This document shows, one piece after another, positions 2,371-54,060 of a stretch of DNA of 64,000 bases (position 1 is its first letter; each line of letters begins with the position of its first letter). Origin of the DNA: Lytechinus pictus (Eukaryota). The stretch lies in NCBI RefSeq assembly GCF_037042905.1, contig NC_087251.1, positions 29,204,001-29,268,000 of the forward strand, in the 5' to 3' direction. Below the pieces are notes generated by a model. The model had not been told where the DNA came from, made no database searches, and was given only the letters and a program-made list of their open reading frames with translations. The position numbers and the translations under genes were made by a program.

Positions 2371-2458
2371 CTCATATGAAAGTCCTTGATGGCTACGTTC
2401 TTGTAGGGCGCGGTTTTACGCTGACACCATAGTAAGAGGCCGTCTCTGGCGGTAGTAT
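2371..2458 (-). CDS. ACTN: Alpha-actinin alternative CH2-start exon B ([29 protein letters not shown])
   Basis: 88 nt, acceptor ...tctcatgcacag, donor AG|GTGACT, phase 1-2, open frame; paralog of 3023-3110. Confidence 0.93.
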
Positions 2459-5400
2459 CTGTGCATGAGATAACACAAACTTGAAAATCCAACATGAGGG
2501 GAACAAACAAACGAGCCATGCCATGCGTTAAATCTAGCACTTTCCTATTTGAATCTGCATACTAAAAGGTAGGAAAATGCTGTATGAAAAATAGGTTTGG
2601 GGTTAGATGACGAGTTAGACATACATTGTAATTGCAAAGATGTAGGAAAGAAAACATGCAGAAGAGACGATGACCCAGTGTGATGCATACACAGTAAAAA
2701 CGCTGTTTAAACATTTATACAATTACTCTACGAACCTCACAGAAGTTGTTTAAAGAACAATGCTTGATTAATCAAGAATTGAATATTAAATTTAATATTT
2801 TTTGCTTAAGATTTTAAACACTTGTTAAATATGTTTAAACCACTACTGTAATGTTCATATAGCAAATTGCATTAAAAAAAATTTAAACAGCAATTTTACT
2901 GTGTATTGTATGTTCAAATGGAAGTAACCTGGGGGGAAAAAAATGTTTAGGTTAGTGACACAGCAGTATCGTTTACCTCACGCAAATGTTTCCTTGTTGT
3001 TTTACAACAACAATTTGTTTACCTATTGTGGAAGTTCTGGATGTTGACGTTTCTGTAGGGGGCAGTCTTGCGCTTACACCACAGCAAAAGGCCATCCTTG
3101 GCAGAGTGATCTACATTGCAGGAGCGGCATACAGGGTTAAGAGTGAGCAAGGGTGGTGTGTGTGATAGAGAAGAGACAAGTGTTCAAGAAAAGATGATCT
3201 GACTAAGATAGACTAGTCGGATCAATGGAAGATTATCCCGGTTGAGATGAGTTTAGATGGTAAGTTACAAACACTTGCTTACCTTGGTATTAACTTAATT
3301 AATATAAAAAAATAATCCGTATCTTTTAAACAATGTACAACAAAACTTGGCTATGTTAAGATATTTTTGCACAACAGTTGTTCTTCTTTTCATCAGGGCC
3401 TATAGATACAAGGCATTGTGCTTTAAGTCTAAAAAGAATGTCAAAAGTATGAAGACAAGCTAATGACATCATAATGACTTAATTGTTAGGTCAAGAGTTG
3501 GTGAGTTCAACTCTGTACAAAATTTAATTATCACTAATATCTTTTGATAAAAATATATGATTTGTTGAGTATAAAGTACAGTAGTATGGCAAACTGACAA
3601 TAACAAGTTTTCCTGCCTCTCACATTTTTGACACCTCATATCTTATAGGCTTTGTACACTGAAATTACAGGGTTTTTTTAAACGGAGAGGCATTTACACA
3701 CTCAAAATCATCTGTTTTTGGGCAGAAAAAGAATCTGAACAAAGTGACTAAATAAGAAAAGTAGAAAGTTGGTCAGAAAGAAGGTCTTGACGGGTGAAAT
3801 GTATCCTCAGAAAAATGGTTACACAAGCCACTATAATCAAAGATGGAAGGTGACCATTTGTAGGAGAAATCAACTTGTATTAGGCTGACATTAAGAGACA
3901 TAGACAGATTATCAAGGAGTGACTATACAGGTTATACCTCATTCACATTTGGTTTACGTCTACGGCGGCCTATATGTAGCTATTGCAAAAAATGTTAAAA
4001 TGTCTGTTTTTGACTCGCCGTACGGCCGCCGTAGATCAAATGTGACTGAGGCATTAGTCACTACATAAGTTAGTCAGAGAAAGTGAGAACATAGAGATTA
4101 GTATCACACAATACCTCATCAGTTTTACTGACAATTAGTGATGACATCCATGAATCATATGATTTAGGGTTGAAATCCAAAATCTCCACATTGTATTTCC
4201 ATGTTGTATGTTTATTAGTGTGTACGTTCTTTGGATACATACTCACGTCTACAATATGTACAGTATTGCACAATCATATTATGAAAAAAATCTACCCAAT
4301 CCTGTGGCTCTTTCAATTATTAGCTCTCCTCAATTTTTCATCTACAATATTAAATAAATATAGGATGTGGACTACAGATAATGGTGAAGATGACATAAAA
4401 TAATACAAAATGAAATTAATGCACATAACATAGATAATAAAAATGCAAAAACAATAACTGACAAATTACCCTCCCCCAACACCCTAGCTGCATTTCATAT
4501 AAAATCCAAATGAACTCCTAGATGATCTGAAATATTCAAGTAGATTTATTTTGAGAATTTCAAAATGAGTTGATCCATGTAAGTTCTTCCTTTCATACAG
4601 TCCAAATCACAAAAACTGCAAATAACAAACAAACAAAAAATTGAAAAAAATGTGCCATTTCATACTTATTTAAATACTTTTCTGTTGGTCTATCCTTTGT
4701 TATGTGAAACTAATAGGAGATCAAAGTCACTGTGATTGTAACAGGGCAACTCCTCCAGGACAATGCCCCACATCCTGACATATCACACTTCGTCAGAGAT
4801 TACCTCACCCAAAAATGCAACTCATCTGAAGACAATCTGTAAGTCACCAGGGGGGGGGGGGAGTGACAATTGCTCCGGGCTTCATTTTGTCTAAGCTGTA
4901 GGGTTAGGGTTGGGTTGCATTCGGGTTTTATGTTAGGCTGAGGGTTAGGTTTAAGGTAGGGTAGCATTTAGTCTAAGGGTTGGAGTTAATAATTCGAATA
5001 GTGTGTGGAATTCAGAGCAGAGCAATTATCCCCCAAAGCAAATGTCATGTAACTCGAGGGGCTTTCTCCTGAGGGGGGGGGGGGGGGGGTCAATGGCATG
5101 GGTTATCGATGGCATGTCAGCAAACTTGCCATTTATAAGGTTTTATCAATTTTGTGAAAGACGGGCTGGGTGTTAATCTTGTTCATTTGATAATGGTTTT
5201 GGCTTTTGAAAAGGAAGATATCAAGGTCAAAGGTCAATTAGTGCTTCTCTAAGTTGATTGACCTTTCAGATATTTCTACAAAGCAAGGAAAGGAGCAATA
5301 GTAAATTATTAACACAATCACGAAAATACATTCAAAATATTCATCACAGCGTTATGACAATCACCATGCAACTGATTGACATACATGTATCTTTATTCTT

Positions 5401-8400
5401 TCTATTTACCGGTAAAAGAATAAAAAAATCAAAGAAAACTTTTCTTTTCTTTGACATTGTGAAACCAAGTTCAGCTCACACGACTGACAAAAGAGTTTCC
5501 ATTATGTTGCTTCAATGAAACTAAAAGGTAATGTATGTCATAGAGGAGCTACAATATGAACTTCCTTTTGAAAATGTGTTCTGCAATAATCTGTGGTTTT
5601 AAGTATGCAATCATTGTATGTATTTTTCAAGCCTTTTTTAATTTTTTACATTAGATAATGTTTAATGGAAACTGAAACTCATTGTCATCTTCAAGAAGTT
5701 TCAATTTGTTATTAATTGTATAATTTATGACATGCAAGCAATTTTGCAGTATATAAATCATGCTTAATTTGGAAGAAACCATGCAATGACATGCATTAAG
5801 ACAAATTGATTTCTCCTTCATCTCATAAAACCAAAAGGTAGTTAAGAGACAATTTTTTTAAAGCAATAGTAAAAGTCAAATATAAATGATCGAATTTTTC
5901 TTCCCAATGATTAATTTGGGTCTTTGGGATAAATTGAACACTGTATGAGGATAGAGCTTATTTCCAATATCTAAGTAATGGAAATACAGCACTTCCAAGC
6001 AGGGTGTGTACAATACAAAGATTTAATTTCAATAAATTCATATTTTGTAATGTTCACGACCCTGCAATCCAGGTAAAGGTACTAAATAGTCAGTAGAAGA
6101 ATTTCCTTCATCATAATAAACTTCTTTGACCGATTCCCAATCTCATGCTTATGAAACAGATGCTTCCATCCATACAGGGCCCCAATCGCACGGAACTAAG
6201 TTACTTTTATGGGAACTTTGCTATCAAACTACCATGGTAACAATGCCAAGCAGCCAATCAGAATCAAGGATTTCAAAGAAGTTACCATTGGAAGACAAAG
6301 TTACCACAACAGTAATTTTGATGCAATGTGGTCCTGATTTGGACTTGAAATGGAATGCATGTCACATATTGTCACCCAGTGATATTTCATAAGATCCATT
6401 GTTTGCTATAGATCTATAAGCTTCTTTGACCTTTGACCCCAATTTTTAATGTGCATACATAGATGCATTTCCCCCACCTTCTATTGAGATGTCCTGGATA
6501 GCAAATCGTAGGATGATGGTCCAGATCATACCCAAGATCATCTTTAGATTCTGATCCACAATTTCTGGTAGTGGGAAGAAAAAAAAAATTTGATATACAC
6601 ACAAAGAATTACAAACTAGCACAATAATACAGCATAAAATGGTATTTATAGGGGTGTGAATGGTCTGCAATTTCTCAGAATAAAAAAAAATTAAAGTACC
6701 AGAATGTTTAATAATATTTTCTTTTCCATAGCATAGACATCTGTACATATAATATCTCTAAAGGGGGTGTTGTAAGAAAATATTTGCAATCAATCGCAAA
6801 TATTCTGTTGCAATTTTACAATTGATTGATCACTTTTAACTGTAGTAAATCAGATTATACTCCTTGTTTCATGGAGCAGATTAGCAATCAATCGCAAATT
6901 TGCAATTAATTGCATGGCATATGCTTGATTTCGGGAATGAAAAATAGACTTGCAATTGATCGCAAGTTTCTTGCAATGCCCCATAAGTGTATTTTACCTC
7001 AGTGGTGAATTGCTTCTCTGATCCCAGGTGCTTAAGATTCCATTTATTTATTACAAATCAAATTAACATACCCTGAAACCTGAGCCGACAACTTTGCAAA
7101 TGTAAATTTTGGTTATTAATTGATAATTTAATCAATTATAGGACTGATGATGCTAGTATGTGGTATAGCGCCCTCTATCATTCATACCGATATAATTTTT
7201 CATTATCTGCTTATCCATTCATCCAAAGCTTTGGTAATTATGGGTCATTAAAGCTTCACTTTAGTTTTCATAAATTCCCCAATAACTGTATGTCATTGTT
7301 CCAATTCATTAATAGATGAATATACACGCTCTAGATGATAAGGACATAAAAAATTTGGTAAATTTGATAAATTTGGTGGTTTAATACAAAAATCTAATAT
7401 GATTGGGTCCCCAATGCCTCAATCAAAATATAATAACTGCATATTGTTGTCTTTATTATGTAAAACCACTTCTCCAGCATAGAATGAACTGAATATTTCT
7501 GTAAATAATCTTTGTAACTTTCTGTTATTCTATACTAAAACTGAAAGATATATCAAAGTTAAGAATCATACCTTCTGCACCAATGGATACAAGCTTCACT
7601 CCTTTTGAACTGATGTAGTCAAGAGCCTTGTTCACGTTTGCAATCTTGTGGACGCGCATCTTTCCGCGGTCTGGTTTCGGAAGTTTTTCACTTGAAATCA
7701 CTTCAAGGAGGGTCAGAAGTTTGAGACCATTGCAAAAGTCTTCTGAGATCTCTTTGATCTCGGCGTTGGCCTTCCTCAAGTGGGAGTTGCACCATGCTGT
7801 AAATGTCTGTATTCAGAGAGAATAAGAAATGCCCTGTTAGAGGTCACATCAGATTGAATAAGACCAAGATGATCAAAAGTTGAACATTTACATTTGATCA
7901 TATATTTTATATTGATACAAGCTACGCAAGCACCAAATCAGTGAGTCTACGTACTTGCATTGGCTGACCATTTTGAATTGATGAGTCTATACTGTTAATG
8001 TTAATTAATTTACATAAGGCTCATTAGTATAGTAACCTCAATTACAGGTATGAATTTAGTGCCATTACTTATGAAAGTCCACATTCATCATTGGACATTT
8101 TCTCAGTATACTTGCTCAAGATACACAAAATCTGCAGAAACCATGGTTTAAAACCAGATTTAATACCACCTTTTTGAATTTGGGCCATCATGTTTCATCA
8201 CTTCGAATAGATTTAATTGTTCGAGTACCAAAATGATAAATTGTACATCTATTTTTTACAGACACATGTACGTATTATATGCATCTCATTTTAATAGTTA
8301 TACACCGTTAAGACCGCTGATTTGTGCTACTGCTTTCATTATGGGCTTACACTGACATGGAATGATCTCTTCCTGCATGAAGCCATTAGAACATGTACAT

Positions 8401-38400: not shown

Positions 38401-41400
38401 TATGAAGGCCCTACAGGAAAATAGGTCTATACATACACAAGGTTCCAAAGATTTTTTTCAAAGCGCAAGATCATCTTCAAAATGACCTCTGTGACCTTTC
38501 CACAAATGACTGTACAGTAGACAAATTCACAAGATTTAATTTAATATACATGTATGTATCAAATTGCTTTGGAGTAAAATCTATGAGAGGTTATTTTATA
38601 AAGTGGAACGCCTCTGGCAGTCTCACCTGCATTACGCGATTCGATATAGCAGCAGTGCTGACTTTGAAAACAGCTATTACATAATTATTCACAAAAGAAA
38701 ACACTCATATGATAATAAAATACTATGTCCAATGACCCAACATGACCTTTGACCATGATCATGTGTCCTAAGACATGTGCAAAAGAATCATTCATACTTG
38801 ATTACCCTTATGTCTATGTTTCATGAACTATATTTGTAGATCTATCCATAAACTTTCTAAGTTATGATACCAATTCAACAAATACCCCAACACGGCCAAA
38901 GTTCATTGACCCTAAATTACCTTTGATTTTGGTCATGTGACCTGAAACACCACAAGATATTCAGGGATACATGGTTACTCTTATGTCTGAAGGTTCATGA
39001 ACTACATGTAGATCTATAAACTTTTAAAGTTATGACATTTCCACAAATACCCCCAAATATTATCAAAGTTTGCTGACCCTAAATGACCTTTGACCTTGAT
39101 CATGTGACCTGAAACTCACACAATACGTTCAGGGATACTTTTAAAGTTATGACATTGCTCTTATGTCTACGTTTCATGAAATACAATGTAGATCCATAAA
39201 ATTTCAAAGTTATGACAATCCCACAAATACCCCCAACATGGTCAAAGTTTGTTGACCCCAAGTTACCTTTGACCTTGGTCATGTGACCAGGCAGGATGTG
39301 CAGTAATACTTGATTACCCTTATGTCCAGGTTTCATGAACTAGATCCATATACTTTCTAAGTTATGATGACATTTCAAGATTTCAATGTTGATGACGCAG
39401 CCGCCGTCGGAAAAGCGGCCCTATAGTCTCGCTCTGCTATGCAGGCGAGACAATGATGCAATTTAACCTTTGACTCTTGACCCTAGGAGGTAGGAAGGCC
39501 CATTGCTTGACCTCATAAGACAAATTAAAGAGAATAATTTCCAATAACTGATGATAAAAGAGGAATTACTTGGAGGAAATAATTATTAGTTTGTGGGGGC
39601 GCTGTGGTTACAAGACTCTTGTCTTTCAATATGAGGGACGTGGCCTTGGGTTCAATTCCAAGCCATGGTGTGTTTATCTTTAGCAAGAAATTTACCCACA
39701 ATGTGCTGAACTCAACCCAGGTAAAGTAAATGGGTACCAGCAGGAAGTATTCCTCAAAAAGCTGTGAGCACCAGAATTGGTAGACTAGCTCAGTCACGGT
39801 AATATAGGAGTGCCTTGAGCACCTGACAAGGTGGATACGTATGCTACATAAATCCTCTATTATTATTTATTTTGTCCTCAAAAGAACTTAAAGAAAGCAA
39901 AATATAATTGGTATAATTGCGAAGCTTCTTGACAAGGAATATTCAACATATTTCTAACCCAGTCTAGCTCTAGACAAAAAAGTTTAAACTGTCTTTAGAG
40001 CACTAAATGTATAACTCATGGCAGCAATAATTGGGGGCTTCCTTAGAAAAATAAAAGCATTTTTATTGGATCATGCAATCATCCAGGGTGTGTTGCTATG
40101 TCAGTGAATGAACTACCTTCTGCTAGGAATACTTGAAACCCCCCAGGTGAACATAACCATTAACAAGCGGAACGCCTCTGGCAGTCTCGCCTGCATCACA
40201 CAATTTAATATAACAAGTTGCTGACTTTGAAATCAATTATTCACAAAAAACACACATACAAAAATAAAATGTTCATTGACCTTAAAATGCCTAAATGACC
40301 TTTGACCCTGATCATAAGAATTAAGACTCCTGCAAAATGATCAGTGCTACTTTGTTACCCTCATGTCCACATTTAATGAACTAGATCAATAAACTTTCAA
40401 TTAGATTGTTATGATGCCAATTCAGCAAATATCCCTAACATAGCCAAAGTGTGCTGAACTTAAATGACCTTTGACCTTCTTCATATGACCTGAAACTCGT
40501 ACAGGATGTTCAGTGATACTTGATTGCTCTTATGTCTAAGTTTCATGAACTAGATCCATAAACTTTTAAAGTTATGATGGCAAAACAGGAAATGCCCCCA
40601 ACATGGCCAAAGTTCATTGACCCTAAATGACCTTTGACCTTTTTCATGTGACCTGAAAGTCACTCAGGCAGGATGTTCATTAATACTTAGTAATATCTAT
40701 AGTATGGCTGTGCTATTCAGGCAAGACAAAAACAGCATCAAACCAAATTTGCCTATAGATTCATTGAGCAGTTTTGTTACCAATAAATGAGATTTTTTTT
40801 ATTTTTGAATGAAACTACATCTCCATTCATACTTGACCTTAAATTCAGCACTGAGCCAGAACCTGACAGTAACACGATTATTGGCTTGTGAATTGAGTGC
40901 ACTTAAAGAACATTTGAGGCATTTGCAGAAGGCCCAATTGGTTAATCTGGACTTCATGAGATTGATCTTGAAACCAGCAATACAGTAGGCCTATATGTTC
41001 AGCAAATGAACTTGGATTTTCGGAATATAGAAAGAAAAATCAAAGTACTGCCAGAAGCTATAGATGCCAGGATTGTTAGATGCAACATTTATTCTTGGAT
41101 CGTTCATCATTAATTTCATCAAAAATCTAGGCAAGCTATTTAACTTTGTGTATAATTCTCAACTAGAGTTTTACTCATATTTTGGAGAACACAGGAGAAT
41201 CTGTTTATCAGCATTGTCATTGGTCATCCTCCGGACATTTGTGCATCATTTAATTGAATCTTCTAAGCTATGATTTTAATAAGTAGGCCTATACATGTAG
41301 TTATTTAACATCATCATCAAAGACAACTTCGAGTGCACATTGTGTACAAGAACTTTACCTGGATTTTGTACTATGAATCTAACACATTCTTAATCATTTG

Positions 41401-44400
41401 GACTGTTTGTTTACATTTTGTTGGACCCATCAAGAATTTATGAAATTGTAAGGTAATCTTGTATGTAATCTCTATTATCCCCCCAAAAGTTCAAGAAAGA
41501 CAATTGCACATTACCAATAACTTTCTGTTGTGAGGACATACAATGTACATTGTAAATGTAAGGCCTCCATCTTAGACTACACGTACATGTATGTACTACA
41601 TGTATGAACAGGGTATACTACAGAGCGTATAAAATAAAAGTATACACTTTGAAATATTAAATGTTTCTAATATCCTGAAGCTTTTTCCAGGTTTATATGT
41701 TCGTATAGGTGACTTTGAGGGAATGACGATAGGAATTCAACAAATCTTTCCACTATAGTGAGCACCATTTACTTTTTTAAAAAATTGTGAAAAATGATCA
41801 GTGCAAAACTATGAAATATGGATAAAAGTAGATGTTAATGACAAAGGGCACATGGGCATTAGCTAAAAAATAACAATTTGAAGGTATCTTTTTCCTTTCT
41901 AACTTGTTTTCTTGGCCAAAACTCCCTCAAGCCCCACCGTCCCCATACACAGACCATCACAATATATGTAGCACTGATCCACATGAAATAATATGCTTGA
42001 TTGTTCTTGTAATTCCATGTATTCCTTATTAATATTATACCTGGGGAAAGTATGGAGAAACAAGTATGAAATGTTAACACCTTCAAATGACAAACTTACA
42101 TGTAACTAAAGAAAAATGCTGGAGATGTCTGAAATGAACTTTTGTATAAATTTGGCTTATTTGTTTCTTTTTATGTCCCCAGATCAAGCTGACACAAACA
42201 ACATAAACACAATAATGTTTAGCTTGGAGCTTGGCCCTTGGGTAAAGTATTTATTCAGGTAGGGAAGAGAGAAATGGACAGCACAGTTACTTCATTTTTG
42301 CACGCTTTACAGAAATAGACAGTGCTCATTCAAACACTCTGTCAAAATTAAACTTTCATCTGATAGATGAGATCAAAGCCCAAGAATATATATGAAAAAA
42401 TTATCCCATTGTCATTTTTTTTCCAATTTGGGGGTCTTTTTCAAAGTGTATTGTAAACTTTTTTATTGATACACACTGTAGTCTGTAGACCCTAGCCTAG
42501 GCTATATAGATCTAAAAAAAGTTAGACTTAATATAATAATGCAGTTTTGAGTGGATGATTAAGATGAGAAAAGGAGAGATCTGAGCTGGATGCACATAAT
42601 TCAATGGGCTACTATGTCAGGCAAGCAAAGACACGACTTTTAATGACAAACCTCTTAACCATTTTTTTTTTTTTTTGTAAGGTTGAGGAACATATAACTA
42701 TAACTACCCAGCGGGCTGCGCTGCTGACGGTGCATGCACGGGGACAGGTCCCCGGGGTGTACACCTACCTTTCGCTGTTGTCTTTCCCAAGCTGGATCCA
42801 AAACTTCATCACGATCCCATTCTTCCTCCTGTTTCATATAATCATCTTCGTCGTCATCGTAGGCATAATGGTCTTGGTTGCCATAGTACGCCATTTTGCC
42901 GGTGGTTACAAGATTTTCCCTCTACAGAACTAAAAGTTTATACAAAAATCGGTGATCGTCCGACGTCTACGAGCGCGGACCCCGGCGGTCGACGATCGTC
43001 GATTTCAACTTTCAAAGGTCACACAATAAGTATTCAACTCGAACCGGCCCCAATACATGTACCATGTGACCCGGAAGTGAGTATGGAGAATTTAGAAATG
43101 ATCATAATTAGTGTTCTTGAACATAAATCGGAAGGGGAAAAAAACATCTCCAAAATATTGACGACTCGGGTGACATGATTGATGTCTAAATGAAGAAATA
43201 AATTTGAACCAATGACCATCAGGCACAAAAAAAAGAATTCAAATCCAGCTATGAACTTTTGTTTTATTCTATACACCTGATATTGTTTTTTGTATATATG
43301 ATCAACTCGTTTACTTCATTAAATAAAAAATAAAAAAAAGAAATCACGTTCGAACCCCCAAATTGTCGGTTGTAAAAAGAAAAAAGAACTAGGCGGATGC
43401 GGTAACAAAAAAGAGCTCAAATTCCTGTAAATCTTTTGTTATTGGACGAGTCAGTCGTATCATAATACCTAAAGCCATTCACCCGATTGAAAAAGGGTAT
43501 TACGAGTAAAGAATTGATTTTCTTCCACGTTTTAGCCTACGCAGTGCGGGATTAAAAAGCAAAATCTACGGTAAAAAAAATCGAAAGCCCCGCGCCCGTT
43601 ACAGAATTGCAGTCAGACTCGAACTCCGAGCCATGTAAACAAACCGACACTCAAATATATTCTCCCAACCTCTCCGCACTCCGTAATATGTAATTCAAGA
43701 GCCATATTTGGCAAGCCCGCTCTATCGCGTTAGCCAAGTGTGTGTATTATAACTGCACTGGCTTCGCATTCCGAACCTTTCATAGTACACCCCGGGAGGA
43801 ATGCGAATAGCATATAGGCTATAGGTATAGCGATTGCCTCGCCGTGTGTATACCCAGTTCAGTCAAGTATATGTACCGGATCCTTTGAATCATCAAATAT
43901 TTTACTTCCAGCCCGAAAGTACAGTAAAACACGAACAGTTAAATTCGAAATATACATATTTCACAAACTATTATTCTAGAGAAACTGATAAATCTTTATC
44001 TCATTTGCTTTATAAAAGTCTTTTAGGCTTTGGGGTTAAATTGATATTTGTTTAAAGTCGTGAATTGAAGGAAGTTACCTAAACAGAAACAGAAACAAAG
44101 GAAGTTAATTTCATTTCTCCAGGAGAAAATCACAAGTCACGGGTGTCAGGCTTAATATCATTGGATAATGAACGATTTGACACATTGCATACATATTCAA
44201 TTAACGTATGTTCATTTAAATACCATGGAACTATATCCATTGTAAGACAATATACTGAACAGAGCTCAAGTCTGGAAAAGTGGGCGGGGTCGTTACACCA
44301 CATGGCTTGCTTCAGCTCAGTCAATAGAGCTCATAATATACACTGTAAAGTTGAAGTTTCGTTGCCGGAAGTTGGTGTGTGGCTTCGACCTATCGCGCGC

Positions 44401-47400
44401 TCATGTGCGTACCGTTCTCTCGATTCGCTCTGACTGTAGTGTTCCCACAGAAATATAACAATTCGTTGAGTGTTCCTGGATTGTCTTTACAGCGCCAGCT
44501 AAAGTTCAAAGCCTACACATTGTTGTCAAATCAATCCGAATCGCATGATTGATTATGTGAAATTTGTAAAGTTTCATCGTTCGCCTGATATAACTCATAA
44601 TGATTCATAATTCACGCATACATGTAGGTGAGAAAAAACAAGTTGAAGAAAGGATACCAAAAAATCAATTTTTTGGCGGACAGTAATTGAGTTTCAAAAA
44701 GAAAATCACGCCTACGTTCCAAAGCTGTTCTTTGAATTGATACCTCAATCACAGAAAATTGTCAAAAAATAACAAAGTTCTGTTATTTCAAATACGCTTG
44801 AATTCCAGTTATTTTATGAAATGAAGAGATTTTACAGTCTATAGCCGTCAGATTTACCCTGCGTTTTGTTGACGATAAGTCAGCCATGCATGAAGTTTTT
44901 TGTTAAAGGGATGGTCCGGGCTGAAAGTATTTATAGCTTAATAAATAGAGTAGAATTCACTGAGCAAAATGCCGAAAATTTCATCAAAATCGGATAACAA
45001 ATAATAAAGTTATTGAAGTTTAAAGTTGAGCAATATTTTGTGAAAACAGTCGTCATGAATATTAATTAGGTGGGCTGATGATGTCACATCTCCACTTTCC
45101 GTTTTCTTATGTTATTACATAAAATCATAATTTTTTCATTATTTCATACTTGTGTGAAAAATATGTCTCCTTATAATGAAATAAGTTGCAGCAATAAATA
45201 TCTAATGCACTAAATCAGTTGTCATTCCAATTTTTTTACTTCTTGGAGGAAAAATTTGAATAAACCTAATTTCATATAATAAAATACAAAAGAACAAGTG
45301 GAGATGTGACATCATCAGCCCACCTAATGAATATTCATGACGACTGTTTTCCCCAAATATTGCTAAAATTTAAAATTCAATAACTATGTTATTTGTTATC
45401 CGATTTTGATGAAATTTTTGGCATTTTGCTCAGTGAATTCTACTTTATTTATTAAGCTATAAATACTTTCAGCCCGGACCATCCCTTTAACCGTGCGACA
45501 TGGCTCCGGTGGGGAATCCGTAATTTACACGTTTGGTTATAATGAAATTATGGAAATACAATTAGCATCAATTCAAAGAAACATAATTTATCATACAATT
45601 TTTCTGTGATTGAAGTATCAGATTAAAGACCAGATATTGACAGTTTTAAACAAGTGACTTTTTTGTATTCTTTTTCAAATCGTGTTCACTCACTCATACG
45701 TGAAGAAGGAAACTCCTAAATGTAGCTGATTTGGATGTATACAATAATTTATACCAGATGAAAGACAAGACTAAGCTTTACAATAATAGGTCATTTGTCT
45801 ATTGTTTTGTGATAAAGTTATGATAAACCAATAAAACCATCGATAATTCTCGGTTTCGTTTTATTTGGGACGCGCTGTATCGAAATAATTTTTTCTGTTT
45901 ACTTTATATCCACGATGCTATCGGCACGTTTGCCTGTTGAACGACCATAGTTCCTTTTCTAGTGGTAGGACACTATTGGCAAATAAACTTGTCCATTTCT
46001 GTTTTTTAATACTTAAGCTCTTAGGAGGTTATACTGATAAAAAATGTTGTATTTATTTATTACAAATAATGCTTTCAACAATATTTGTTAGGATGAATAT
46101 CATGAAGATGTAACATAATAATACTGTACACACACACAATCATGTGGGCTTACACTTATTTTCTCTTCTGTTTCCCACACGCACAATTTCTTAATCATTA
46201 TGTACATGTTCAATTCTTACATTTTTATTTTTTTTTAAATAATGGACTTTGTGGGCCTATATGAAACTTAGAATGTCTCTTTGAATAATGACAGAGATTA
46301 ACATATTATATTTCCATCTTTAAGTCCATTAGCCTCAAGATACACAGGTGACAGGGGGTTTCGTACCATATACAGCGAAAAAGCCTCTTTTCAATTGTTA
46401 TCACTTTGTGAAAATTTGATTTTTCATGGGGGTCTATCACACTCTCTTGGACTTGCTAATGATTTTATTTTTCTAATGGCCATCTTAGCACTAATCTTAC
46501 AAGCTAAATTACTGGATATCAAAAAGATAGAAACACATTATATTCTTCAACTTTCACACTACTCTAAATTCTACACTTGAATAAATAATTTCATTTCAAT
46601 AACTGATTAAGGGCATATTACGATGTCCATTCATATAAATATTTGAATAAATTTGAACATTTGGTGGGATTTGCTAGGATTTTGTATACAAACAACCCTG
46701 AAAAATATACTTCCATTTCTTATGGAGAATCATTGAATAAAAATTTAAGTGTACAAGTTTGCAGCTAAATTGATCAAATGCATCTCATGTGAAGAAGGAA
46801 TACATAGAGCAAAATATATCGGTATTTATGAAGCAGAGCAGAACCATGATAAATTACTAAACTTGATCACACAGCATGATTTCATATAAAAAGGGAGTAC
46901 ACTTTATATTGGTTCCTTCACAATACAGGAAAGGCAATTTAGAAAACCATCAAGTAATCTGAAGTTCCACTTTGTACTAACACTTGAACTTTACAGTTTA
47001 GAGTATTCTTTTGGTTAAATTTAATTATGTACATTTTTAGAGATAATAATAAGTCTTGTACAATATACCAGCATGTTGGATGATGATATGACCAAGGAAA
47101 GGACTAGATTCATTGCTATATACACAATGTATCTATGAGGTTTTTAATTATTACAAATGGAAATAAAACCACTAACAGTGAACATTTGATCCCCATTCAA
47201 AGAGAAAAGCACTCAAACATTGATTTCCCATGCATGATTATGTGCAATATAACCAGCATGTAGATATAGAAATGAACACCATCACCATATATCAATTAAT
47301 TTTATTTCCATGATATCCTTTGGAAATGTATGTGAAACTTCAAGTACTTTTACTTCTCATTGGAATAGTACCAATTCAATGAATTCAATCTTTTTGTTTT

Positions 47401-50400
47401 AAAACCAAAATATTTTCAAAACAATTACATTTTACTTCATATTTATGGGGTTATTTTTTATTTTATTTAGGCCTACCCTGTTGTACTGTACATGTACATT
47501 GTATGTCTCTTTGAAAGGGAAATTCATACAAAGCAAGATCACTTTTCAAGTGAGCCTACATGTATGTAGACTGTGTAGTAAACCATCTGTGTGCTTGTAC
47601 TTGTCAGTCTATCTTTCTACAATAGTATATATACAATTAGTTTCCACAATAAAAAAATGTTTAGATCTCTCCATTCTGGGAATAAACTTCACAGTCTAAC
47701 AGGAATTGTGGGACCACATGTACAACTAAACAAAGATTAAAGACGTGGAACTAATTTGACTTGGTCCATTTCCTAATAGTTAAGCATTGCCAGTAATCAT
47801 TTCAATGATAGTCTACAAAGGTACATGTAATACACAATGAACCAACGATAGAAGAATTCACAGAAATGAATAGCTGCCTTCGATCTAAGTTCACATTCTG
47901 TAACCGCCCCATTTGCATCTTGGGGTTATCAGTGAACTATTGTACAGTAGTGAACACAAGCTTGATGTGTCAACATACCAGTAGTATGCAAACAGTGGAT
48001 TGTCTGATCATTGCCCATTCCTTAATATGTTGTATGCTAGTTTGTTTATGATCTATAAAAACTAATTCTATCTACTCAATGTAACATATATACATATGTT
48101 GTGTGTACATGAAAGTAGTATTCCAATCAAACTGCCTTTTATCATCACAATCCATGTGTACTACAGTACTTTTGTTCTAACAATAATTCAATGTCTTTAT
48201 GATCTGATAAGCAAGGATAAAATCATAAAACCTGTACTTTAGTCAAACAAATGGACATTGGCAACTCTGTACATCTACATAGCATAATGATTTAAAAAAA
48301 CCTCATGCAATGGATCTAACAAAATTGCAGTATGCTACTATGCTAGAACGTGCTTTATCTTCCTTTATCTAGACCACATTCATGTCATCTAAATTATCGT
48401 CTACAATGGGATTTGGATTATGGAAGAGAGAGCTTCAAAGTGATTGGAGTGTTAATATTAAGAATTATGATACACCTTAGAATGTAGTGTATGCTGTGAA
48501 TTATTGGAAACAATTAGGCCTATAAGAAAACAAGATAGTCTAGTCTGCCAAGTCACACACACTGCAAGCTACAACAAATACTGAAATCAGAATGTCAGTT
48601 CATAACATATCCGGCAACTTCATTCCTAAACCCTTTTCACAAAGAGCCTTTCTACATAGGTATACATCTCTTTATAATTGATACTACCAGCAAAACAAGC
48701 TAAGACATATCAAATTCAACAAAACTGAATTTCTAAAGGATCAGGAAATAAGAATTATTAGTATTGAAAATAATAGCAGAATAGATGAAATATACATTAA
48801 ACCAGGGAGTTGGGATCCAAAAACACATGTGAAAATTTGAAATTTGATTTACATATCTAGTGCCCTCTCTTGGTTAAATTTTTTTTCCTTAAAATATGAC
48901 CCTTTGAGCATTTAATGTATTTTTTTTAAATACACAAATGGATAAGGCGTACATGTACGAGTAGAAATTTTCAACCCAATTCAAGTTTGAAAAGAGGAAT
49001 TATGTAAGAATAGAAAAAAGAAATATTTGATCAGGCACTTGATAAAAATATTATTTTCCTTTTTTCTAAAACAAATTTTCATGCCAAATTGCAAATTCAT
49101 CCAACACAATTTCACTCCATAACCTAGTGCATAACAATGTAGTAATGAACTGAAACAGTGCCATTCACTTTATGAGGGATTAACTAAAACTAAAAAAAAA
49201 AAAAAAAAGATTTGATGATGGCTGGGCATTAATAATCACTTTGTAATTCGGTAGTTAAATGAACAACTTTCGAAATACATCCCCAGAAAAGGACTATATT
49301 AATTTCTTGTATAGTAGTGGATCATATTACCAAACACATTTCACGAATTTTTAATCATATCATTCAAACACAATAAACAAAATATAAAGACGTACATTTT
49401 ATTGCCTTAAACAATTTTCTTTAACTAGATCTATACTTAATAGTTATTATAGCTAGATTTCATCCAAGTACATGATCAACACATGAATGCTATTGCAGGC
49501 CTGGCTATTGACAGTGAGACTATCGCTTCTTATCTCCGAAGAGCGGAGGATCAAAACTGAGAGATATCAGCTTCCAAACGTACCACTCTTTGTATGTGAA
49601 ATGTTTTGGTCACAAGTTTGAGAAGTGTACCAGATTATACCAAAGATGCGTCTTCTGTGAGACAAGTTGGAAAATTAAAATAACATAGCTGCTATTTTTA
49701 CCATATTTAGAGAAAATGACAGAAAATTGGCACACTGGCACAAATTATTTTAGATGGAGATAACATCAGTGACAGACCTGGAAACTCGACAGCATAATTG
49801 CATTTTTCCAGTACTGGCAGTAGATCCAGTACCCCTTTTCATCATCTTTCTAGTTAAATTTGATTTGGAAGGATACTGCGTAGTTTATAAAGCACACAGC
49901 ATAATTTACAAATATTTATTATAGGCTAGTCGGTAGTAGAGAGACTGACATGTAGATCTACATGGCCAAATTATTTTTCTTTTTTAATGGCACTGTCAGT
50001 AAGAGTAGGTAGGCTACCTCAAATAATCATGGGCCATCTATTCTAGGCTCTAGATCATGTAGATCTAGAGTCTAGTCCTGCTACCGGCCTAGTTACTTCG
50101 CATGGTTAAGTGATTAGGGCAGGGCCTAGGGCATGTCGGGCCTTGGCTAAAATCATTGTGAACTGTGAAGCCATCGATTATCAGGTTTAATGACGAGACT
50201 GTCCTTTTTTCCTCAATCAAGAAATTCTTACATCATTACATGCATATGGACCGACTCTTAATTGTTAACCACCTGAGTGATGGATTCACCGGGAAGTAGA
50301 AAAGCCGGTATAAACAACGTTTTAATGTTAGCCTGTCCTCCGGGTGTCCTCGATCTCGAGTTGGCGCCGACCGTCTCACTTTGTCAGCGAGGCTCTGCCC

Positions 50401-50519
50401 GATAACATGGCTAAATAAGAAAACGCCTACCGTACCTTTTTTTGCTGTCTTTCCCAATCCGGATCCAAAAGACCTTTATGATCCCATTCTTCTTCTTGCT
50501 TCATATATTCCCCGGCCAT
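2371..50519 (-). CDS. ACTN: Alpha-actinin gene, 5' portion (N-terminal extension, CH1, start of CH2); spliced, continues beyond position 1
   Basis: Exons join in frame with GT-AG boundaries to give ...YMKQEEEWD...WERQQ(R/K)K / [12 protein letters not shown]...KLVSIGAE / [29 protein letters not shown] / D..A(K/R)DGLLLWC.RKTAPY.NV.I..FH, the hallmark alpha-actinin actin-binding domain. Confidence 0.97.
2690..2903. mobile_element. MITE with CACAGTAAAA termini and TA flanks, between the two alternative actinin exons
   Basis: ta|cacagtaaaaacgctgtttaaa ... tttaaacagcaattttactgtg|ta. Confidence 0.8.
3023..3110 (-). CDS. ACTN: Alpha-actinin alternative CH2-start exon A ([29 protein letters not shown])
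   Basis: 88 nt, acceptor ...tgcaatgtag, donor AG|GTAAAC, phase 1-2, open frame. Confidence 0.93.
3935..4053. mobile_element. Second, diverged copy of the 1624-1772 MITE family
   Basis: tacctcattcacatttg ... caaatgtgactgaggca with TTA on both flanks. Confidence 0.8.
4862..5056. repeat. Non-autonomous element with degenerate TTAGGG-like internal repeats; related copy at about 30000-30150
   Basis: tgacaattgctcc ... gcaaatgtcatg ends; internal gggttagggttgggtt/agggttaggttt; similar 3' end at 30130-30150. Confidence 0.55.
6177..6334. mobile_element. Degenerate Harbinger-like MITE
   Basis: cag|ggccccaatcgca ... tgcaatgtggtc|ctg; internal ccatggtaac/agccaatcag motifs shared with elements at about 56130-56285 and 62750-62915. 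Confidence 0.5.
6478..6564 (-). CDS. ACTN: Alpha-actinin exon ending CH1 ([29 protein letters not shown])
   Basis: Poly-T tract plus CAG acceptor, donor G|GTGGGG, 87 nt, phase 1-1. Confidence 0.97.
6763..6982. mobile_element. Harbinger-like MITE rich in ttgcaatcaat motifs; inverted copy at 60975-61187
   Basis: ggggtgttgtaagaaa ... tttcttgcaatgcccc imperfect TIRs; matches the reverse complement of 60975-61187. Confidence 0.7.
7572..7806 (-). CDS. ACTN: Alpha-actinin CH1 exon ([78 protein letters not shown])
   Basis: Acceptor ...ctctctgaatacag, donor G|GTATGA, 235 nt; conserved CH1 sequence. Confidence 0.97.
9447..9526. mobile_element. Miniature TTAA-flanked (piggyBac-like) element
   Basis: ttaa|cccattgcctactg ... 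cagtagtcaactgg|ttaa imperfect inverted ends. Confidence 0.55.
10555..10878. mobile_element. Diverged partial copy of the 31005-31492 MITE family
   Basis: Shares gtgaggacaca, cgctactc, tgcctacg, ttcccatagcaacaagat.gctttac.tgaagtg and aatgctagc blocks in the same order. Confidence 0.7.
11434..11824. mobile_element. Harbinger-like MITE
   Basis: Perfect TIR TACCCCTTTCATAAACCCAATAAAACA; flanks TTA/TAA; internal ttatccgcat repeats. Confidence 0.85.
16284..16346. mobile_element. Minimal MITE, essentially two TIRs; same terminus ends a longer element at about 12975-12995
   Basis: aggcatattcagaccgcct ... aggtggtctgaatacacct. Confidence 0.6.
16726..17115. mobile_element. Harbinger-like MITE
   Basis: agggccgtctgcaccagcc ... 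ggctggtgcagcaccgcct; internal tagcgcgcta and gggattattt repeats. Confidence 0.7.
17290..17456. mobile_element. Palindromic MITE with about 60-bp arms and CTG target duplication; fragment at about 18940-19030
   Basis: gtttcataaaactgatcgtaagttaagagcgactttaagaacgact ... agtcgttcttaaagtcgctcataacttacgaacagctttatgaaac; CTG on both flanks. Confidence 0.85.
18691..18882. mobile_element. Tc1/mariner-like MITE
   Basis: ta|cagtggtattaaatagttgaaccccaccagaaaat ... attttctggtggggttcacaaactttttagcaccacta|ta. Confidence 0.75.
20743..21502. mobile_element. Non-autonomous piggyBac-like element
   Basis: ttga|ccctaattctaggccgggg ... ccccggcctagatagg|ttaa; GC-rich subterminal blocks. Confidence 0.75.
22035..22256. 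repeat. MITE fragment with clustered TGACGCT/AGCGTCA motifs abutting the Sola2-like left end
   Basis: About eight tgacgct/agcgtca copies ending in ttatgaaatgggccccag, a terminus like the other CWG-flanked MITEs; no partner TIR seen. Confidence 0.55.
22283..28603 (+). mobile_element. Autonomous-looking Sola2-like cut-and-paste DNA transposon, antisense within actinin intron 1
   Basis: Perfect 31-bp TIRs AGGGGTCAAAACCACTATCTCGGCGCAATTG (22283-22313 and 28573-28603); internal transposase ORF; repeated subterminal motifs; left end reads GAG (Sola2 ends are GRG). No clear TSD. Confidence 0.88.
24260..26824 (+). CDS. 854-aa DDD-type transposase, Sola2-like
   Basis: Uninterrupted ORF; motifs MDFAENY (D480)...EVQSAYW...[11 protein letters not shown] (D557)...[18 protein letters not shown] (D599); CLCQKH and CYCQSC Cys motifs; basic, coiled-coil-like N-terminus. 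Family assignment is from recalled motifs. Confidence 0.85.
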   Translation: MARSRAEIQAAYRQRKRQKMGENAYLQAERQRVKKYYKPVDTLTKKRVQERRTQVNRRVRKHRDRVRRVRQEMEQRRNMNIDDVGYTADDDSAISDISPDISNQLGLTIKMPFQKPRRKRVSRCLSKAHRNIEQLTLKLQAAKKDKTRLKKRCERLQNKVMTSMPTRKEVKNTPRSRTNSQLEDEGIDPSRVPSIRKRLLFSNAMMEEIQGSSNTSRKMSDRRILHQLVAGSKVLKKYRLLKLLRTETGLGRRNLSKANKHTKSTQQSRPTWTSLHLEVVEFLHRDDVSRMCPGKKDSSKGKDGTKCQKRYLTDYLSNLHERYLAETDGKRKISLSAFNRVRRTLCPHIKPVQFASRDLCLCQKHQNVALKLKALQSLGGTVNDNPDEFIKEHNEAQVDILLNNLQSEQIQFDEWSRVEVDGRKKIKIIRISQSKPDFIKRFQKEIQEFRQHVVRIKNQFRALLDCKNSLKPDECIIQMDFAENYVCVPLEEVQSAYWCQDGVTLHPIVVYFRNDGNELVHQSFAAVSDDRNHNTSTILAILKELIPHLHKVHYWTDSPTSQYRNKTMFSLVSEHADIFDGIHAQWNYFESGHGKGPCDGIGGTIKRLADTAVKRRAAVIQDAYDFFAWASQERHECSGSKINFFFVAKGDCAAGSLLIAERWSSVKTFPGTMQMHAVIGHDNGVLLRKLSCYCQSCYGSREEGQVETMCEGWKHNRLLYRSTTMSTTGASVTPQSPSNTSMSENDESSPTTNEASSGTYGVDDWVAAVYDKQWYIGKVLKFDSSDIHIDFMAKCSGTHTGGKYKWPVKKDAIWVAWDKVLCHITPCFCDTSQRIVTLSPEQKALIEEAFKAVV
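31005..31492. mobile_element. Harbinger-like MITE
   Basis: About 35-bp TIR gactctgttctcactaccgtcctaaaactagttt / aaactagttttaggaaggtagtgagaacaaggtc. Confidence 0.8.
33480..33980. mobile_element. Old inverted-repeat element with about 70-bp imperfect arms
   Basis: 33480-33550 (gttcaatgtccattttcaaatttaaacagcaatatgaatcatgattgaaa) is approximately the reverse complement of 33910-33978. Confidence 0.6.
35390..35851. repeat. Truncated non-autonomous DNA element with repeated GGGGTCT..GGAAC motifs
   Basis: ggggtctaaggaact-like motif recurs about five times; ends in gagtgcccccccccgg; GC-rich against its background. Confidence 0.55.
36553..37137. mobile_element. Kolobok-like MITE
   Basis: aggacaagtcca.ccc ... 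gggtggacttgacct|ttaa; long imperfect arms containing gaaaatttcatcaaaatc.gatgtaaaataag. Confidence 0.8.
38600..39453. mobile_element. Helentron-associated (HINE/DINE-like) element with about four 165-180-bp internal tandem units
   Basis: Subterminal inverted repeat gtctc(a/g)cctgcat (38620) / atgcaggcgagac (39439); terminal hairpin gtctcgc...gcgagac; tgacctttgacc units at about 38743, 38917, 39084 and 39263. Confidence 0.75.
39596..39870 (+). mobile_element. tRNA-derived SINE
   Basis: tRNA-like head with B-box gggttcaattcc, central ctcaacccaggt...aaatgggtacc block, tail ending ataaat...tattattatt. Confidence 0.8.
40162..40730. mobile_element. Second copy of the same Helentron-like family (about three units)
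   Basis: aacaagcggaacgcctctggcagtctcgcctgcat start; units at about 40296, 40465 and 40628; degenerate end ctatagt...caggcaagacaa. Confidence 0.75.
41621..42478. mobile_element. Tc1/mariner-like non-autonomous element just downstream of actinin exon 1b
   Basis: ta|cagagcgtataaaataaaagtatacactttgaaa ... tttcaaagtgta...ttttttattgatacacactg|ta. Confidence 0.75.
42769..42894 (-). CDS. ACTN: Alpha-actinin proximal first coding exon (1b), [42 protein letters not shown]
   Basis: Matches the actinin N-terminal motif [20 protein letters not shown]; 126 nt, phase-0 donor AAG|GTAGGT. Confidence 0.95.
42895..43860 (-). promoter_or_regulatory. Putative promoter/5' UTR of actinin exon 1b
   Basis: CpG-rich against a CpG-poor background; ETS-type CCGGAAGTG at 43071-43079; perfect CArG box CCATATTTGG at 43702-43711. 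Confidence 0.55.
44640..45878. mobile_element. Older Tc1/mariner-like element interrupted by the 44907-45486 MITE
   Basis: Right end ggtttcgttttatttgggacgcgctg|ta; internal inverted match tgatacctcaatcacagaaaatt (44738) / aatttttctgtgattgaagtatca (45597); left terminus not seen. Confidence 0.6.
44907..45486. mobile_element. Young Kolobok-like MITE with about 190-bp near-perfect inverted arms and TTAA duplication
   Basis: ttaa|agggatggtccgggctgaaagtatttatagcttaataaat ... atttattaagctataaatactttcagcccggaccatccct|ttaa. Confidence 0.92.
50436..50519 (-). CDS. ACTN: Alpha-actinin distal first coding exon (1a), [28 protein letters not shown]
   Basis: 84-nt open frame from ATG at 50519 to phase-0 donor AAG|GTACGG; clear homolog of the exon at 42769-42894; lies in a CpG-rich region. 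Not in the ORF track. Confidence 0.85.
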
Positions 50520-51200
50520 TTCGCCCTAAATGACTTCTGAGAGATTATTTCCAAAAAAATTGCCAAAGTTCGAGGATGTTGACAAGTTAATCCAAAACGT
50601 GTAACAATTTATGTAAATTCCAGGCGAGCAGATAATTGTTACAGAATTCACAGATATCAGTATAAAACTCCTACTCGATTTGACTATGCACGGATTGCGC
50701 GCGCGCAAACGGCGGGTTCTCTTTGCATTCGAATGTACGGTAGTTGCAGTTGCAATATCGTAAAGTCAACAGGTGGTCATGGATGCAATGGTGGTGGTAT
50801 GCGCTAATTATTGCACGGCGGAGTACAAATCATTATAACCGCACCCCTGCTCGTGTCAGAAAAGCCAATCAAAATCCCGAATGCTCAATGAATGACGCTC
50901 TGTATAAATAGCGAATAAATAGACTAATAATAGGCAAGAGCGTGATGGTATGGGAGTTCGAATGAGGTGAAAAACGCGGAAAAGGGGGTGTTTTTCGTGG
51001 GTTGTAGGCCTCGGAACGTGAATACAAAACATGCACACACAAAAAAATGAGAAAAAGCCCCTTGAATCACGATAACCTAAAACCCGGGCCTAAAACACGA
51101 TGTACTTTAATTTGCACCGACGGGACCGACTGCGGGGCCGACGATATGCCCTTCCAGCTAGACCCGAATCCCGCGGCCCCAATCCACAACAAACAAGGAA
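50520..51200 (-). promoter_or_regulatory. Putative promoter/5' UTR of actinin exon 1a
   Basis: CpG-rich stretch (gcgcgcgcgc at about 50697); AGCCAATC CCAAT box at 50863-50870. Confidence 0.5.
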
Positions 51201-51426
51201 CAAATTAAATAAAACCATAAAAAACTCAGCTCAAGTTTGAGCGTGCAAAAATTGGTAGGGTAGTGGAGGGGGAGGGGGTGGGGGCAATGACAAGCATGTC
51301 CTTCCATACACTTTCTGACTATATATAATACATGTCAAACATATTGCTAGTTCGGTTGTTTTTGTTTTTCTTGTTCAGTATTAAAAGATTAAGGGGATCC
51401 CTTCATTTGTACTTTGGGGGTAATTT

Positions 51427-51585
51427 CATTGGCGGCGGAAGCCAAAACTTTTAGGGAAGTCCACCTGAATTTAGGGGGGATCGACGTAGGAAACAAAATT
51501 GACATGCAAAAAAAAAAGTTACCAACAAAAAAAATAGGGGGGACAGGACCCCCCCCCCCCCCCCCCCCCCGCTTCGCCGCCTATG
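51427..51585. mobile_element. hAT-like MITE
   Basis: cattggcggcggaagc ... gcttcgccgcctatg with 8-bp flanks ggtaattt / gataattt (7/8 match). Confidence 0.75.
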
Positions 51586-52351
51586 GATAATTTGATACAT
51601 CAACTGTTTGCACAATTCACCGCCCGTCATCTGCCACAAAATTATGCGAGACGCGACTTCCGGGTTCAGGGAAATGTCCCCATTAACCCATTACGAAATT
51701 TCAATTATATTTGTTTTTCTTTCGTGCGTTGTTTATACCCAAGACATTTGAAATATACTACTCAATACTATAGTATAGGCCTATGTAGGATAACATTTAT
51801 CAAACTATGTCGGCTCCCAATCGGGGGGGGGGGAGCCCGGTGAGTATTCCTGGGGGTGACAGAATAGATGGTGCCAGGTCTGCCTCTTAGGGCCCCTGGG
51901 AACGATTTTTATGTGGGGGTACTGATGTAAATTTGAAAAGCAAAAAAAAAGGGGGGGTCACAACTAAATGAGCACCCCCGCTTCCCAGGGCCATGCTGCC
52001 TCTTTACTGATTTGTTATTTTCGGTTAAGAAATAAACTTGGACACAAATCACCCGAACACTTTTTCATGTCGTAAGGCTGTATAACACTCTGTATACTCT
52101 TTATTTTGGACAGAACGGTATCGACTCGAGCGCATTTTCTTCAGGGGAAACCTGATTTAATACTAAAATTATACTGCCATTTTCCTTTTTGGAAATAGTT
52201 TTCAGATGTAGAATATAATACAAATAATCAGTTCTTGATTTCCGATGGAGATACAAACACACTTCCTCAGCAAGCTGGATGTACACGCCCCGTACACGCT
52301 TCGGAAAGAGAGTTATAATACTTGAGACAGATCGCCCATCAGCTCACCAGT

Positions 52352-54060
52352 CAGGGCCGTCTAAACTGGAGGGGGTGGGGTAATTAAGCCCCCCCCCCCC
52401 ACTAATTTGGATATTGTCGGGAACTCAGCGCTGCAGTCGGGGGAAAATGAAGAAAAGGGGAAAGAGGAAAAAAGGGAGAAAGAGGAATAAAGAAGGGAGA
52501 AAGCGGAAAAGGAAGGGAGAAAGAGGAAAGAAAAGGGGGGAAAAGAGAAAGAGACAAAAAAAGAAAAAAAATGAAAGAAAAAAGAGAGGAAGGAAGGAAT
52601 AAATAAGGGACAAAGAGAAAGAGGGAAACAAACTGAAGGAGAAAAATCAGAGAGAGAAGAGAACGGGGTAGACAAGGTTTTAATTAGGTAAACCTGTGTG
52701 TCGGTGTAATTAAAGATGAGGAGTCACAGATTGCTGGACCATGGACCTGTCGGGAAAATGACAAACGCAGGTCTGTTCAACTGTTCCATATAGGCTACCT
52801 TGTTTTTGCTTGGTGTTTGACCAGTTTCATTATCTTTGTCGGTAGAATGATGTCTGTCACATTGCATACTGCTATCGTTAAATTGTGATATTTTTTTTCG
52901 CAATGCGAACGTGGGAGCTCTTTGTACCGATAATGATAATCATCCTGGTTTAAGTTCTAAATCTCAAAAGAAAAAAAAATCAGCTCGCGCTTCGCACTCG
53001 CATTATATATCTATTGAGATCCATATCCTCTCCAAAATTTTCTTTCATGTTGGCCAGTGCTTAAATTTCCCTCAGAATAGGCCTATAAAAAATTTCATCT
53101 CTTGCTTCGCATACATCCAGTTTATTAAATTGCATATGCCACATTTTTTTTCTTATATAAAACGTGTGATGATATTCAGTTTTTAAATCAAAATGTTAAG
53201 TTTTTAAGTCAAAATATCAAAAATTTGTACCGACAGTGATAAGAATGCACCGGCTTAACCCTCTCACGTCCCTGGTCTAAATCAATTTTTTTAAATCAGC
53301 TCGCGCTCGCATAATTATATTAAGGGAGATCGATATTCCCTCAACAATTTCCTGCATGTTGGGCAGTGCTTAAAATTTCCCTTTGGATCAGTACTACACC
53401 AACAATTTCAGCTCGCGCTTCGCATGTTTTTTGATATACACATCTTGTTCAATTACAGATGCAGAAACTTATTTTTTTTTTAATGTAAAACGTGTAAAAA
53501 TGTTAGTTTTCAAATTAAAATTTTCAGCTCGAATCATTTAGTGATACCTTTCTTTTTCATGATAACATAAACTGCATGGAATGTTCGATTTTTAGTCTGA
53601 ATTTGATTAGATACCAACCGTGTTCATTATTGCAAAAAGTGTTAAGAATGTCATATTTTCAGGTTGTAAAATAAAAAAAAAAGCTCGCACTTCGCGATTG
53701 TTTACTGTGTTCGTTGTTTAAAACGTGCTTAAGCCTACCCAGTCCAGGTTTCAGCTCGGACACCTTTTTTTTCAGCTCGCGCTTTGCACTCGCTCTATTT
53801 GATAAGTGATAAATGTATTCTATTTATGAGTAACGGCAAACAGATAATTAACATGTCCTTTTTCAGAACAATTAATCAAAAGTTTCAGCCCGCGCTCGCA
53901 TGCATTGTTATGTACGCACATTCCACTTTTCTAGTCGGAAATGAAAAAAAAAATCAGCTCGCATCAAAATGTTTGGTGAATATATCAATCCTCTTCATGA
54001 TATTTTTTTTTTGATGTCCTTTTTAGTTCTAAATCTGCAAAAATTCAGCTGTTTTTTTTA
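52352..54060. repeat. Composite repeat: cagggccgtc start, purine (GA) tract 52440-52670, then degenerate tandem units anchored by cagctcgcgcttcgc
   Basis: cagctcgc(gcttcgc) recurs about ten times between 52980 and 54050. Confidence 0.65.

Follow-up and report, generated by a model that had tools for sequence, protein, structure and literature searches.

Two homologous first coding exons, differing at a predicted actin contact, in the single alpha-actinin gene of Lytechinus pictus

The window analysed here is a stretch of 64,000 nucleotides of the Lytechinus pictus genome (RefSeq assembly GCF_037042905.1, contig NC_087251.1, positions 29,204,001 to 29,268,000), and all positions are given relative to its first nucleotide. 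It includes the 5′ part of an alpha-actinin gene on the minus strand. Residues 1-895 of the Lytechinus variegatus actinin map colinearly from 42894 to 27.9 kb past the window's start, and in clean alignments the downstream exons are 95-100 % identical to the RefSeq proteins of L. pictus. Precomputed Pfam assignments for the actinins of relatives list CH, spectrin and EF-hand domains, and the tandem CH domains, spectrin-repeat rod and EF hands that characterize alpha-actinin are found in one gene. The exons at the actin-binding end are listed below.

50436..50519, minus strand: first coding exon 1a (84 nt, 28 aa, short), with a 5′ UTR extending to at least 50539
42769..42894, minus strand: first coding exon 1b (126 nt, 42 aa), encoding 15 acidic residues and 5 Tyr
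7572..7806, minus strand: common exon 2 (CH1 domain), acceptor at 7806
6478..6564, minus strand: exon 3, with joints in 4 of 4 RNA runs
3023..3110, minus strand: alternative exon 4A (start of CH2), with no joint among those listed
2371..2458, minus strand: alternative exon 4B, used in 4 of 4 RNA runs and with both first exons

The alpha-actinin of L. pictus is a single gene with two homologous first coding exons. In both 1a and 1b the ATG is preceded by A at -3 and followed by G at +4, and both exons are closed by a GT donor after a whole codon. Exon 2 starts in phase 0 at 7806, right after a CAG, and both first exons are in phase with it. The coordinates, frames and donors, and the acceptor compatible with both exons, were right in a preliminary description of this DNA, which was made from the sequence alone. 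The two exons share 62 of 78 nucleotides (E 2e-15, pairwise search of 1.2 x 1.4 kb) and 18 of the 25 residues in their protein cores, with silent differences in 6 of the 15 codons that can be compared. Duplicated promoters had also been proposed, but this part was not borne out. A search for promoter homology between 1a and 1b found no match beyond the 78 coding nucleotides (best E 0.017 in the same search), and the two upstream regions have no detectable homology.

When a profile of the first-exon core was run against the 6022 stop-free stretches in 134 kb, 1a and 1b were the sole copies (E ~1e-17 each, next-best stretch 0.73), and no third first exon or third exon 4 was found by profile in this region. 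Genome-wide, there were two matches to exon 1 and one actinin-grade match to exon 2, the next-best exon 2 match having 35-49 % identity, and no other actinin exons were found between 1a and 1b. This agrees with the earlier argument against a second gene. By tblastn and profile, only exons 1 and 4 occur in two copies, and all others have a single match. This includes the exon type that we take to be exon 8 of other actinins (one profile match here), and a duplicated internal exon like those in the known exon 8 and exon 19 switches was not found at this gene. An exon-8-type pair is present in arthropod and nemertean models. A pattern scan of metagenome contigs for 1a returned 0 matches.

RNA evidence was drawn from 4 of 21 runs (X1, X19, X20 and X21), with about 6 % of each run sampled. 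X19, X20 and X21 are stranded raw runs from a single study. The X1 contig was taken as RNA by an automatic guess, and it is spliced. This contig (3418 nt, depth 74.4) places bases 1-104 on exon 1a (50539-50436), 103-339 on exon 2, 340-426 on exon 3 and 427-514 on exon 4B. The 1a-exon 2 junction is demonstrated by this one contig, which joins 1a-2-3-4B, and the predicted 50436>7806 junction is thereby present; contig depth in X1 was zero on the 1b bin. The stranded depths in the 434-bp bins of 1b and 1a, respectively, were 2.31 and 0 in X19, 0.15 and 3.41 in X20, and 0.21 and 3.66 in X21. All of this depth lies on the strand expected for actinin, whereas most repeat bins have depth on both strands. 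Minimum read counts (1b/1a) were 7/0 versus 2/21, giving a Fisher p of 2e-5, or 0.006 when halved for mates. Thus use of the two exons differs between samples, at low counts: one of the three raw runs contains 1b only (X19), and two of the three (X20 and X21, few reads) contain about 95 % 1a.

One reading is that 1a was left over from a second gene, or that it is a pseudo-exon or arose by duplication in the assembly, and 1a is indeed missing from the RefSeq proteins found for both Lytechinus species. However, 1a is present in RNA and joined there to exon 2, it is conserved in Strongylocentrotus, a single exon 2 occurs in the genome, and the unrelated flanks and the silent differences at 6 of 15 codons are unlike those of a haplotype copy. 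We consider this reading largely refuted and scarcely credible.

None of the joints listed is a 1b-exon 2 junction (42769>7806). That 1b joins exon 2 is inferred from X19, which contains 1b together with exons 2, 3 and 4B without 1a, and from the protein models of relatives, as RefSeq proteins of L. variegatus and Strongylocentrotus purpuratus have 1b joined to exon 2. Alternatively, 1b could be an internal exon, reached from 1a or from an unseen non-coding upstream exon, and the choice would then be one of splicing. Two candidate acceptors precede the 1b ATG, one at a distance of 27 nt, which is in frame with the 1a donor, and one at 35 nt, and truncated RefSeq models in L. pictus hint at unexplained 5′ structure. 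Against this, the 1b reads in X19 are accompanied by zero depth on 1a and at 43236-44537, the X1 contig passes from 1a directly to exon 2, no reads for the candidate acceptors are among those listed, tandem N-termini occur in none of the fetched echinoderm proteins, and a CpG island covers 1b (see below). An internal 1b is thus improbable.

Exon 3-4B joints were found in the raw runs (2, 14 and 14 reads) and in the X1 contig. In the four runs there were no exon 4A joints among those listed, and depth in the bin 3048-3234, which overlaps exon 4A, was 0 in all three raw runs. The preliminary description had envisaged up to four isoforms and suggested that first-exon choice be examined for coupling to the exon 4 pair. 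The combination 1a+4B is seen here, and 1b+4A and 1b+4B are modelled in relatives, but 1a+4A was found nowhere. As to coupling, 4B is used with both first exons, and no 4A joint is among those listed. Strict 1b-4A coupling was rejected, as X19 uses 1b and yet its sole listed exon 3 joint leads to 4B (2 reads). Partial coupling may still be compatible with these two reads.

The urchin exon 4 pair (2371-3110, minus strand) looks like a reduced form of an echinoderm cassette. Three exon 4 variants occur among the models of Diadema, Apostichopus, Patiria, Acanthaster, Asterias rubens and two crinoids. Lytechinus and Strongylocentrotus have two, and the hemichordate and protostome models seen have one. 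At position 3075, exon 4A has a Lys codon where most relatives have Gln (in the motif LLLWC-x-RK). X1 contig sequence has T>G at this position, and the site may therefore be a polymorphism or a species difference.

The features around the two starts are as follows.

42895..44894: CpG-rich island upstream of 1b, likely an internal promoter (CpG observed/expected 1.21)
50520..54000: CpG-rich intergenic region above 1a, presumed distal promoter (observed/expected 0.7-1.15)
43702..43711: CArG-box match, a weak lead, about 810 bp upstream of the 1b ATG

Each first exon had been credited with its own CpG-rich upstream region. This holds for 1b, where observed/expected CpG is 1.21-1.34 within a depleted gene body (mostly 0.2-0.6), falling to 0.16-0.22 between the exons (46001-49000) and 0.27 in the intron below 1b (36000-42500). 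At 1a the ratio is also high (0.86-1.02), but these values equal the intergenic background and do not rise above it. DNA outside genes has a ratio of about 1, and 25 of 133 1-kb bins reach at least 0.9. Because values near 1 are common outside genes, only the 1b island, which lies inside the depleted gene body, is informative. A CpG content that is low in gene bodies and about 1 outside them is the pattern of invertebrate gene-body methylation. Germ-line transcription from a distal 1a start would run through 46-49 kb and keep this stretch methylated, and 1b would be an internal promoter protected from methylation. Independent expression and the CpG island at 1b suggest that 1a and 1b each start at their own promoter. 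A muscle identity for 1b was considered and rejected, as there is one CArG match near either start and 15 in 134 kb, which is not significant.

We note some repeats in this region. A MITE-like palindromic element of 600 bp (81 % self-complementary) lies between 1a and 1b at 44902-45491, and has high read depth on both strands that derives from copies elsewhere. A diverged related palindrome is found at 36551-37139. Tandem repeats of one family (unit length about 150-170 bp) occupy 54145-54403, 38601-39454 and 40165-40688, and related copies are heavily transcribed from one strand, at a depth of 630-870 in all three raw runs.

Exon 1b is 95 % identical to the alpha-actinin of L. variegatus and 84 % to that of S. 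purpuratus. In S. purpuratus, automatic RefSeq models X1, X2 and X3 (XP_797562.1, XP_011684038.1 and XP_003728056.1) already hold both first exons and the 4A/4B pair. X3 carries 1a, X1 and X2 carry 1b, and the combinations are 1b+4A, 1b+4B and 1a+4B. What the L. pictus analysis adds to these models is the switch between samples and the change at a contact residue. The core of 1a is identical in Lytechinus and Strongylocentrotus (25/25), compared with 23/25 for 1b and 678/804 for the rest of the protein. The naive p for 1a versus the rest is 0.014, but the match is less striking than this value because the N-terminal core is conserved in all actinins. The preliminary description was to be abandoned if 1a had neither transcripts nor conservation in related species; it has both. 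The 1a extension in S. purpuratus is 10 residues longer than in Lytechinus and retains an upstream Tyr.

The RefSeq models for L. variegatus have 1b alone. The two L. pictus RefSeq proteins (P0134 and P0135, both 804 aa) begin with a Met that lies within exon 2 and contain neither 1a nor 1b, which may reflect an annotation error or a third, non-coding first exon. Clones or guides designed from these L. pictus proteins would miss both first exons and the first half of CH1. No second N-terminus was found in the fetched models of 10 named non-camarodont echinoderm species, and in the fetched models of three hemichordates and several protostomes each gene has a single homologous N-terminus. Models that were truncated or unrelated (P0012, P0015, P0249 and P0256) were set aside from this survey. 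The absence of 1a elsewhere is weak evidence, as the Lytechinus annotations miss it too.

The duplication is no younger than the split between Lytechinus and Strongylocentrotus. Exon 1b had been likened to muscle ACTN2, but the resemblance is not specific, as Tyr-rich and acidic extensions are also found in the single first exons of hemichordates, molluscs and nemerteans. For this reason, 1b looks like the general ancestral type and Lytechinus 1a like a trimmed one. Exon 1a has Gly-Leu-Leu as in hemichordates and protostomes, Val stands at that place in 1b and in every other echinoderm first exon seen, and a Lys in 1a is common to echinoids and Apostichopus. In the best tree (22 rows, 25 sites), 1a falls outside 1b and the other echinoderm exons, and a duplication in the echinoderm stem fits best. 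With the same 25 sites, four younger placements of the duplication are rejected by AU (p 0.02-0.03) and not by KH and SH (p 0.10-0.12). The values for a camarodont-only duplication are AU p 0.03 and KH and SH p 0.12, and a tree joining 1a with the Diadema exon was not rejected. Dating the duplication by tree was therefore set aside, as there are 25 sites and the AU test disagrees with KH and SH.

In a cryo-EM structure of ACTN4 on actin, described in a preprint (PMC13001351), the N-terminal extension becomes ordered from Y31 onwards in the strong-binding state, with actin contacts at Y31, M32, W38 and R40. Ala mutants of M32, W38 and R40 are reported to bind actin more weakly, phosphorylation of Y31 to inhibit binding, and the N-terminal segment to contain autoinhibitory elements (PMC13001351). 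The contact spacing of 0/+1/+7/+9 fits exon 1b at all four positions (Y19-M20-W26-R28) and exon 1a at three of four (Y5-M6-W12-H14), with His for Arg. The relevant residues are listed below.

50436..50519, minus strand: exon 1a, His at the ACTN4 R40-equivalent and Asp at the A47-equivalent
42769..42894, minus strand: exon 1b, Arg at the ACTN4 R40-equivalent

The urchin first exon would thus encode the segment that clamps actin in the ACTN4 structure, a link that is new here. From 289 proteins, 263 with the 24-residue core yielded 64 distinct cores, of which 4 were out of register and were dropped, leaving 60 in a sample that is rich in vertebrate ACTN2 and protostomes. Among these 60, the R40-equivalent is Arg in 57 and Tyr in 2 (Tyr occurs in a nemertean), and His is found in 1a only. 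Exon 1a is also alone in having Asp at the A47-equivalent. It has His-Lys where other actinins have Arg followed by a mostly acidic residue. The Arg-to-His change at a predicted actin contact, which the preliminary description missed, appears to be the most telling difference between 1a and 1b. The two exons also differ in acidic residues (15 in 1b and 8 in 1a), in total Tyr (5 and 1) and in net charge (-10 and -3).

A difference in phosphorylatable tyrosines had been suggested. The Y31-type Tyr is present in both exons, and it is the extra upstream Tyr that differ, with a total of 1 in 1a versus 5 in 1b. We take Y12 of ACTN1 to be the equivalent of this shared tyrosine. Actin binding by ACTN1 and ACTN4 is under the control of tyrosines in the N-terminus; phosphorylation of ACTN1 Tyr12 is reported to inhibit it, and Tyr4 of ACTN4 to gate phosphorylation of Tyr31 (PMC8431150).

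The explanation that we favour, and consider probable, is a single gene with two first exons used almost in an either-or manner, likely arising from an old tandem duplication and having separate promoters, that likely yields two cross-linkers with different grips on actin. The exon-switch architecture itself is highly likely. A real difference in actin binding between the 1a and 1b proteins, which is predicted from residues, is credible with moderate confidence. Exon 1b has the residues of all four named contacts (Y, M, W and R) and a 14-residue acidic, Tyr-rich tail, and this tail would give control by phosphorylation and autoinhibition. In Lytechinus, 1a lacks the tail, and its His-Lys pair would retune the strong-state contact with actin. 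A promoter switch would then exchange an intact clamp with a regulatory tail (1b) for a retuned clamp without one (1a). The direction of any change in affinity is not predictable, because the missing Arg and the missing acidic tail would act in opposite directions.

If the two N-termini were functionally alike, the promoters would set only where and when the gene is expressed, and the His would be tolerated or compensated by the next residue. Both exons retain the Y, M and W contacts, 2 of 60 cores tolerate a Tyr at the R40-equivalent, and the Lytechinus 1a extension, which is 10 residues shorter than that in Strongylocentrotus, seems free to change. The Lys beside the 1a His may compensate for the lost Arg. 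However, the 1a-specific residues are unchanged across two genera while the 1b cores differ at 2 of 25 positions, the charge gap is 7 units, and R40A is reported to impair ACTN4 binding (PMC13001351). Equivalent N-termini are accordingly unlikely.

A more elaborate version of the preferred reading, with two differently gripping cross-linkers, is that the two forms are a natural pair of catch-bond variants, in which one promoter switch swaps the segment of the strong, force-activated state, the duplication perhaps dating from the echinoderm stem and 1a having been lost or left unannotated in other classes. This is tentative and rather doubtful. The role of the N-terminal segment in the weak-to-strong (catch-bond) transition is named as open in PMC13001351, and the urchin N-termini are a ready natural pair for testing it. 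A further speculation, that the His acts as a pH switch at fertilization, was not retained; egg actinin of unspecified isoform gels actin at pH 6-7.5 (PMC2113424). Actinin moves to the egg cortex at fertilization and to the cleavage furrow (PMC2113424; PMC11467475).

The architecture is of an already known kind, and both exons are already in S. purpuratus RefSeq. Lytechinus is a genetically tractable genus. As proposed for the urchin gene, alternative first coding exons of plectin are joined to one shared exon 2 and precede a tandem-CH actin-binding domain, and in plectin their use is tissue-specific (PMC8466646). The short N-termini of plectin number at least nine and direct the protein to sites in the cell (PMC8466646), and the urchin gene has two, each carrying the predicted actin-contacting segment. 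The two urchin exons are clear homologues. The UGT1A and protocadherin loci are many-copy arrays in which the variable exon encodes most of a domain, whereas the urchin gene has two copies encoding 28-42 residues; no array of many first exons of that type was found by the 134 kb profile or the genome search. What would be shared with these loci is the joining of homologous 5′ exons, thought to be chosen by promoter, to shared 3′ exons (PMC4465641).

The alternative exons known in actinins are an exon of the actin-binding domain in Drosophila and exon 19a/b in chordates (PMC4550062). For the actinins this review lists internal-exon splicing and gene duplication, and the term 'first exon' is absent (PMC4550062). 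In common with the Drosophila case, one invertebrate gene would vary its actin-binding end between tissues. However, the known actinin events are internal, and vertebrates vary the N-terminus by whole-gene duplication (ACTN1-4), whereas the urchin does so by first exons. First-exon switching would therefore be a third route to actinin diversity, beside internal-exon switching and whole-gene duplication. No description of twin first exons in an echinoderm actinin was found in the literature searched.

Two neighbouring features were recorded. An intact ORF of 870 aa (24212-26824, plus strand) lies inside intron 1, antisense to actinin, and adjoins a CpG-rich patch at 22-24 kb. It matched no Pfam family above the cut-off, and its Atlas neighbours are unnamed eukaryotic clusters (0.91-0.94). 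From its motifs, it presumably resembles a DNA-transposon transposase. The last exon of a DCAF5-like gene (57293-58780, minus strand; E 1e-14 to PDB 8tl6_B) has the same orientation as 1a and is about 6.8 kb upstream of it, and the 50520..54000 region is between this gene and actinin. As Dcaf5 maps close to the 5′ end of Actn1 in the mouse (PMC3493592), the DCAF5-actinin gene pair appears to be conserved between urchin and mammal.
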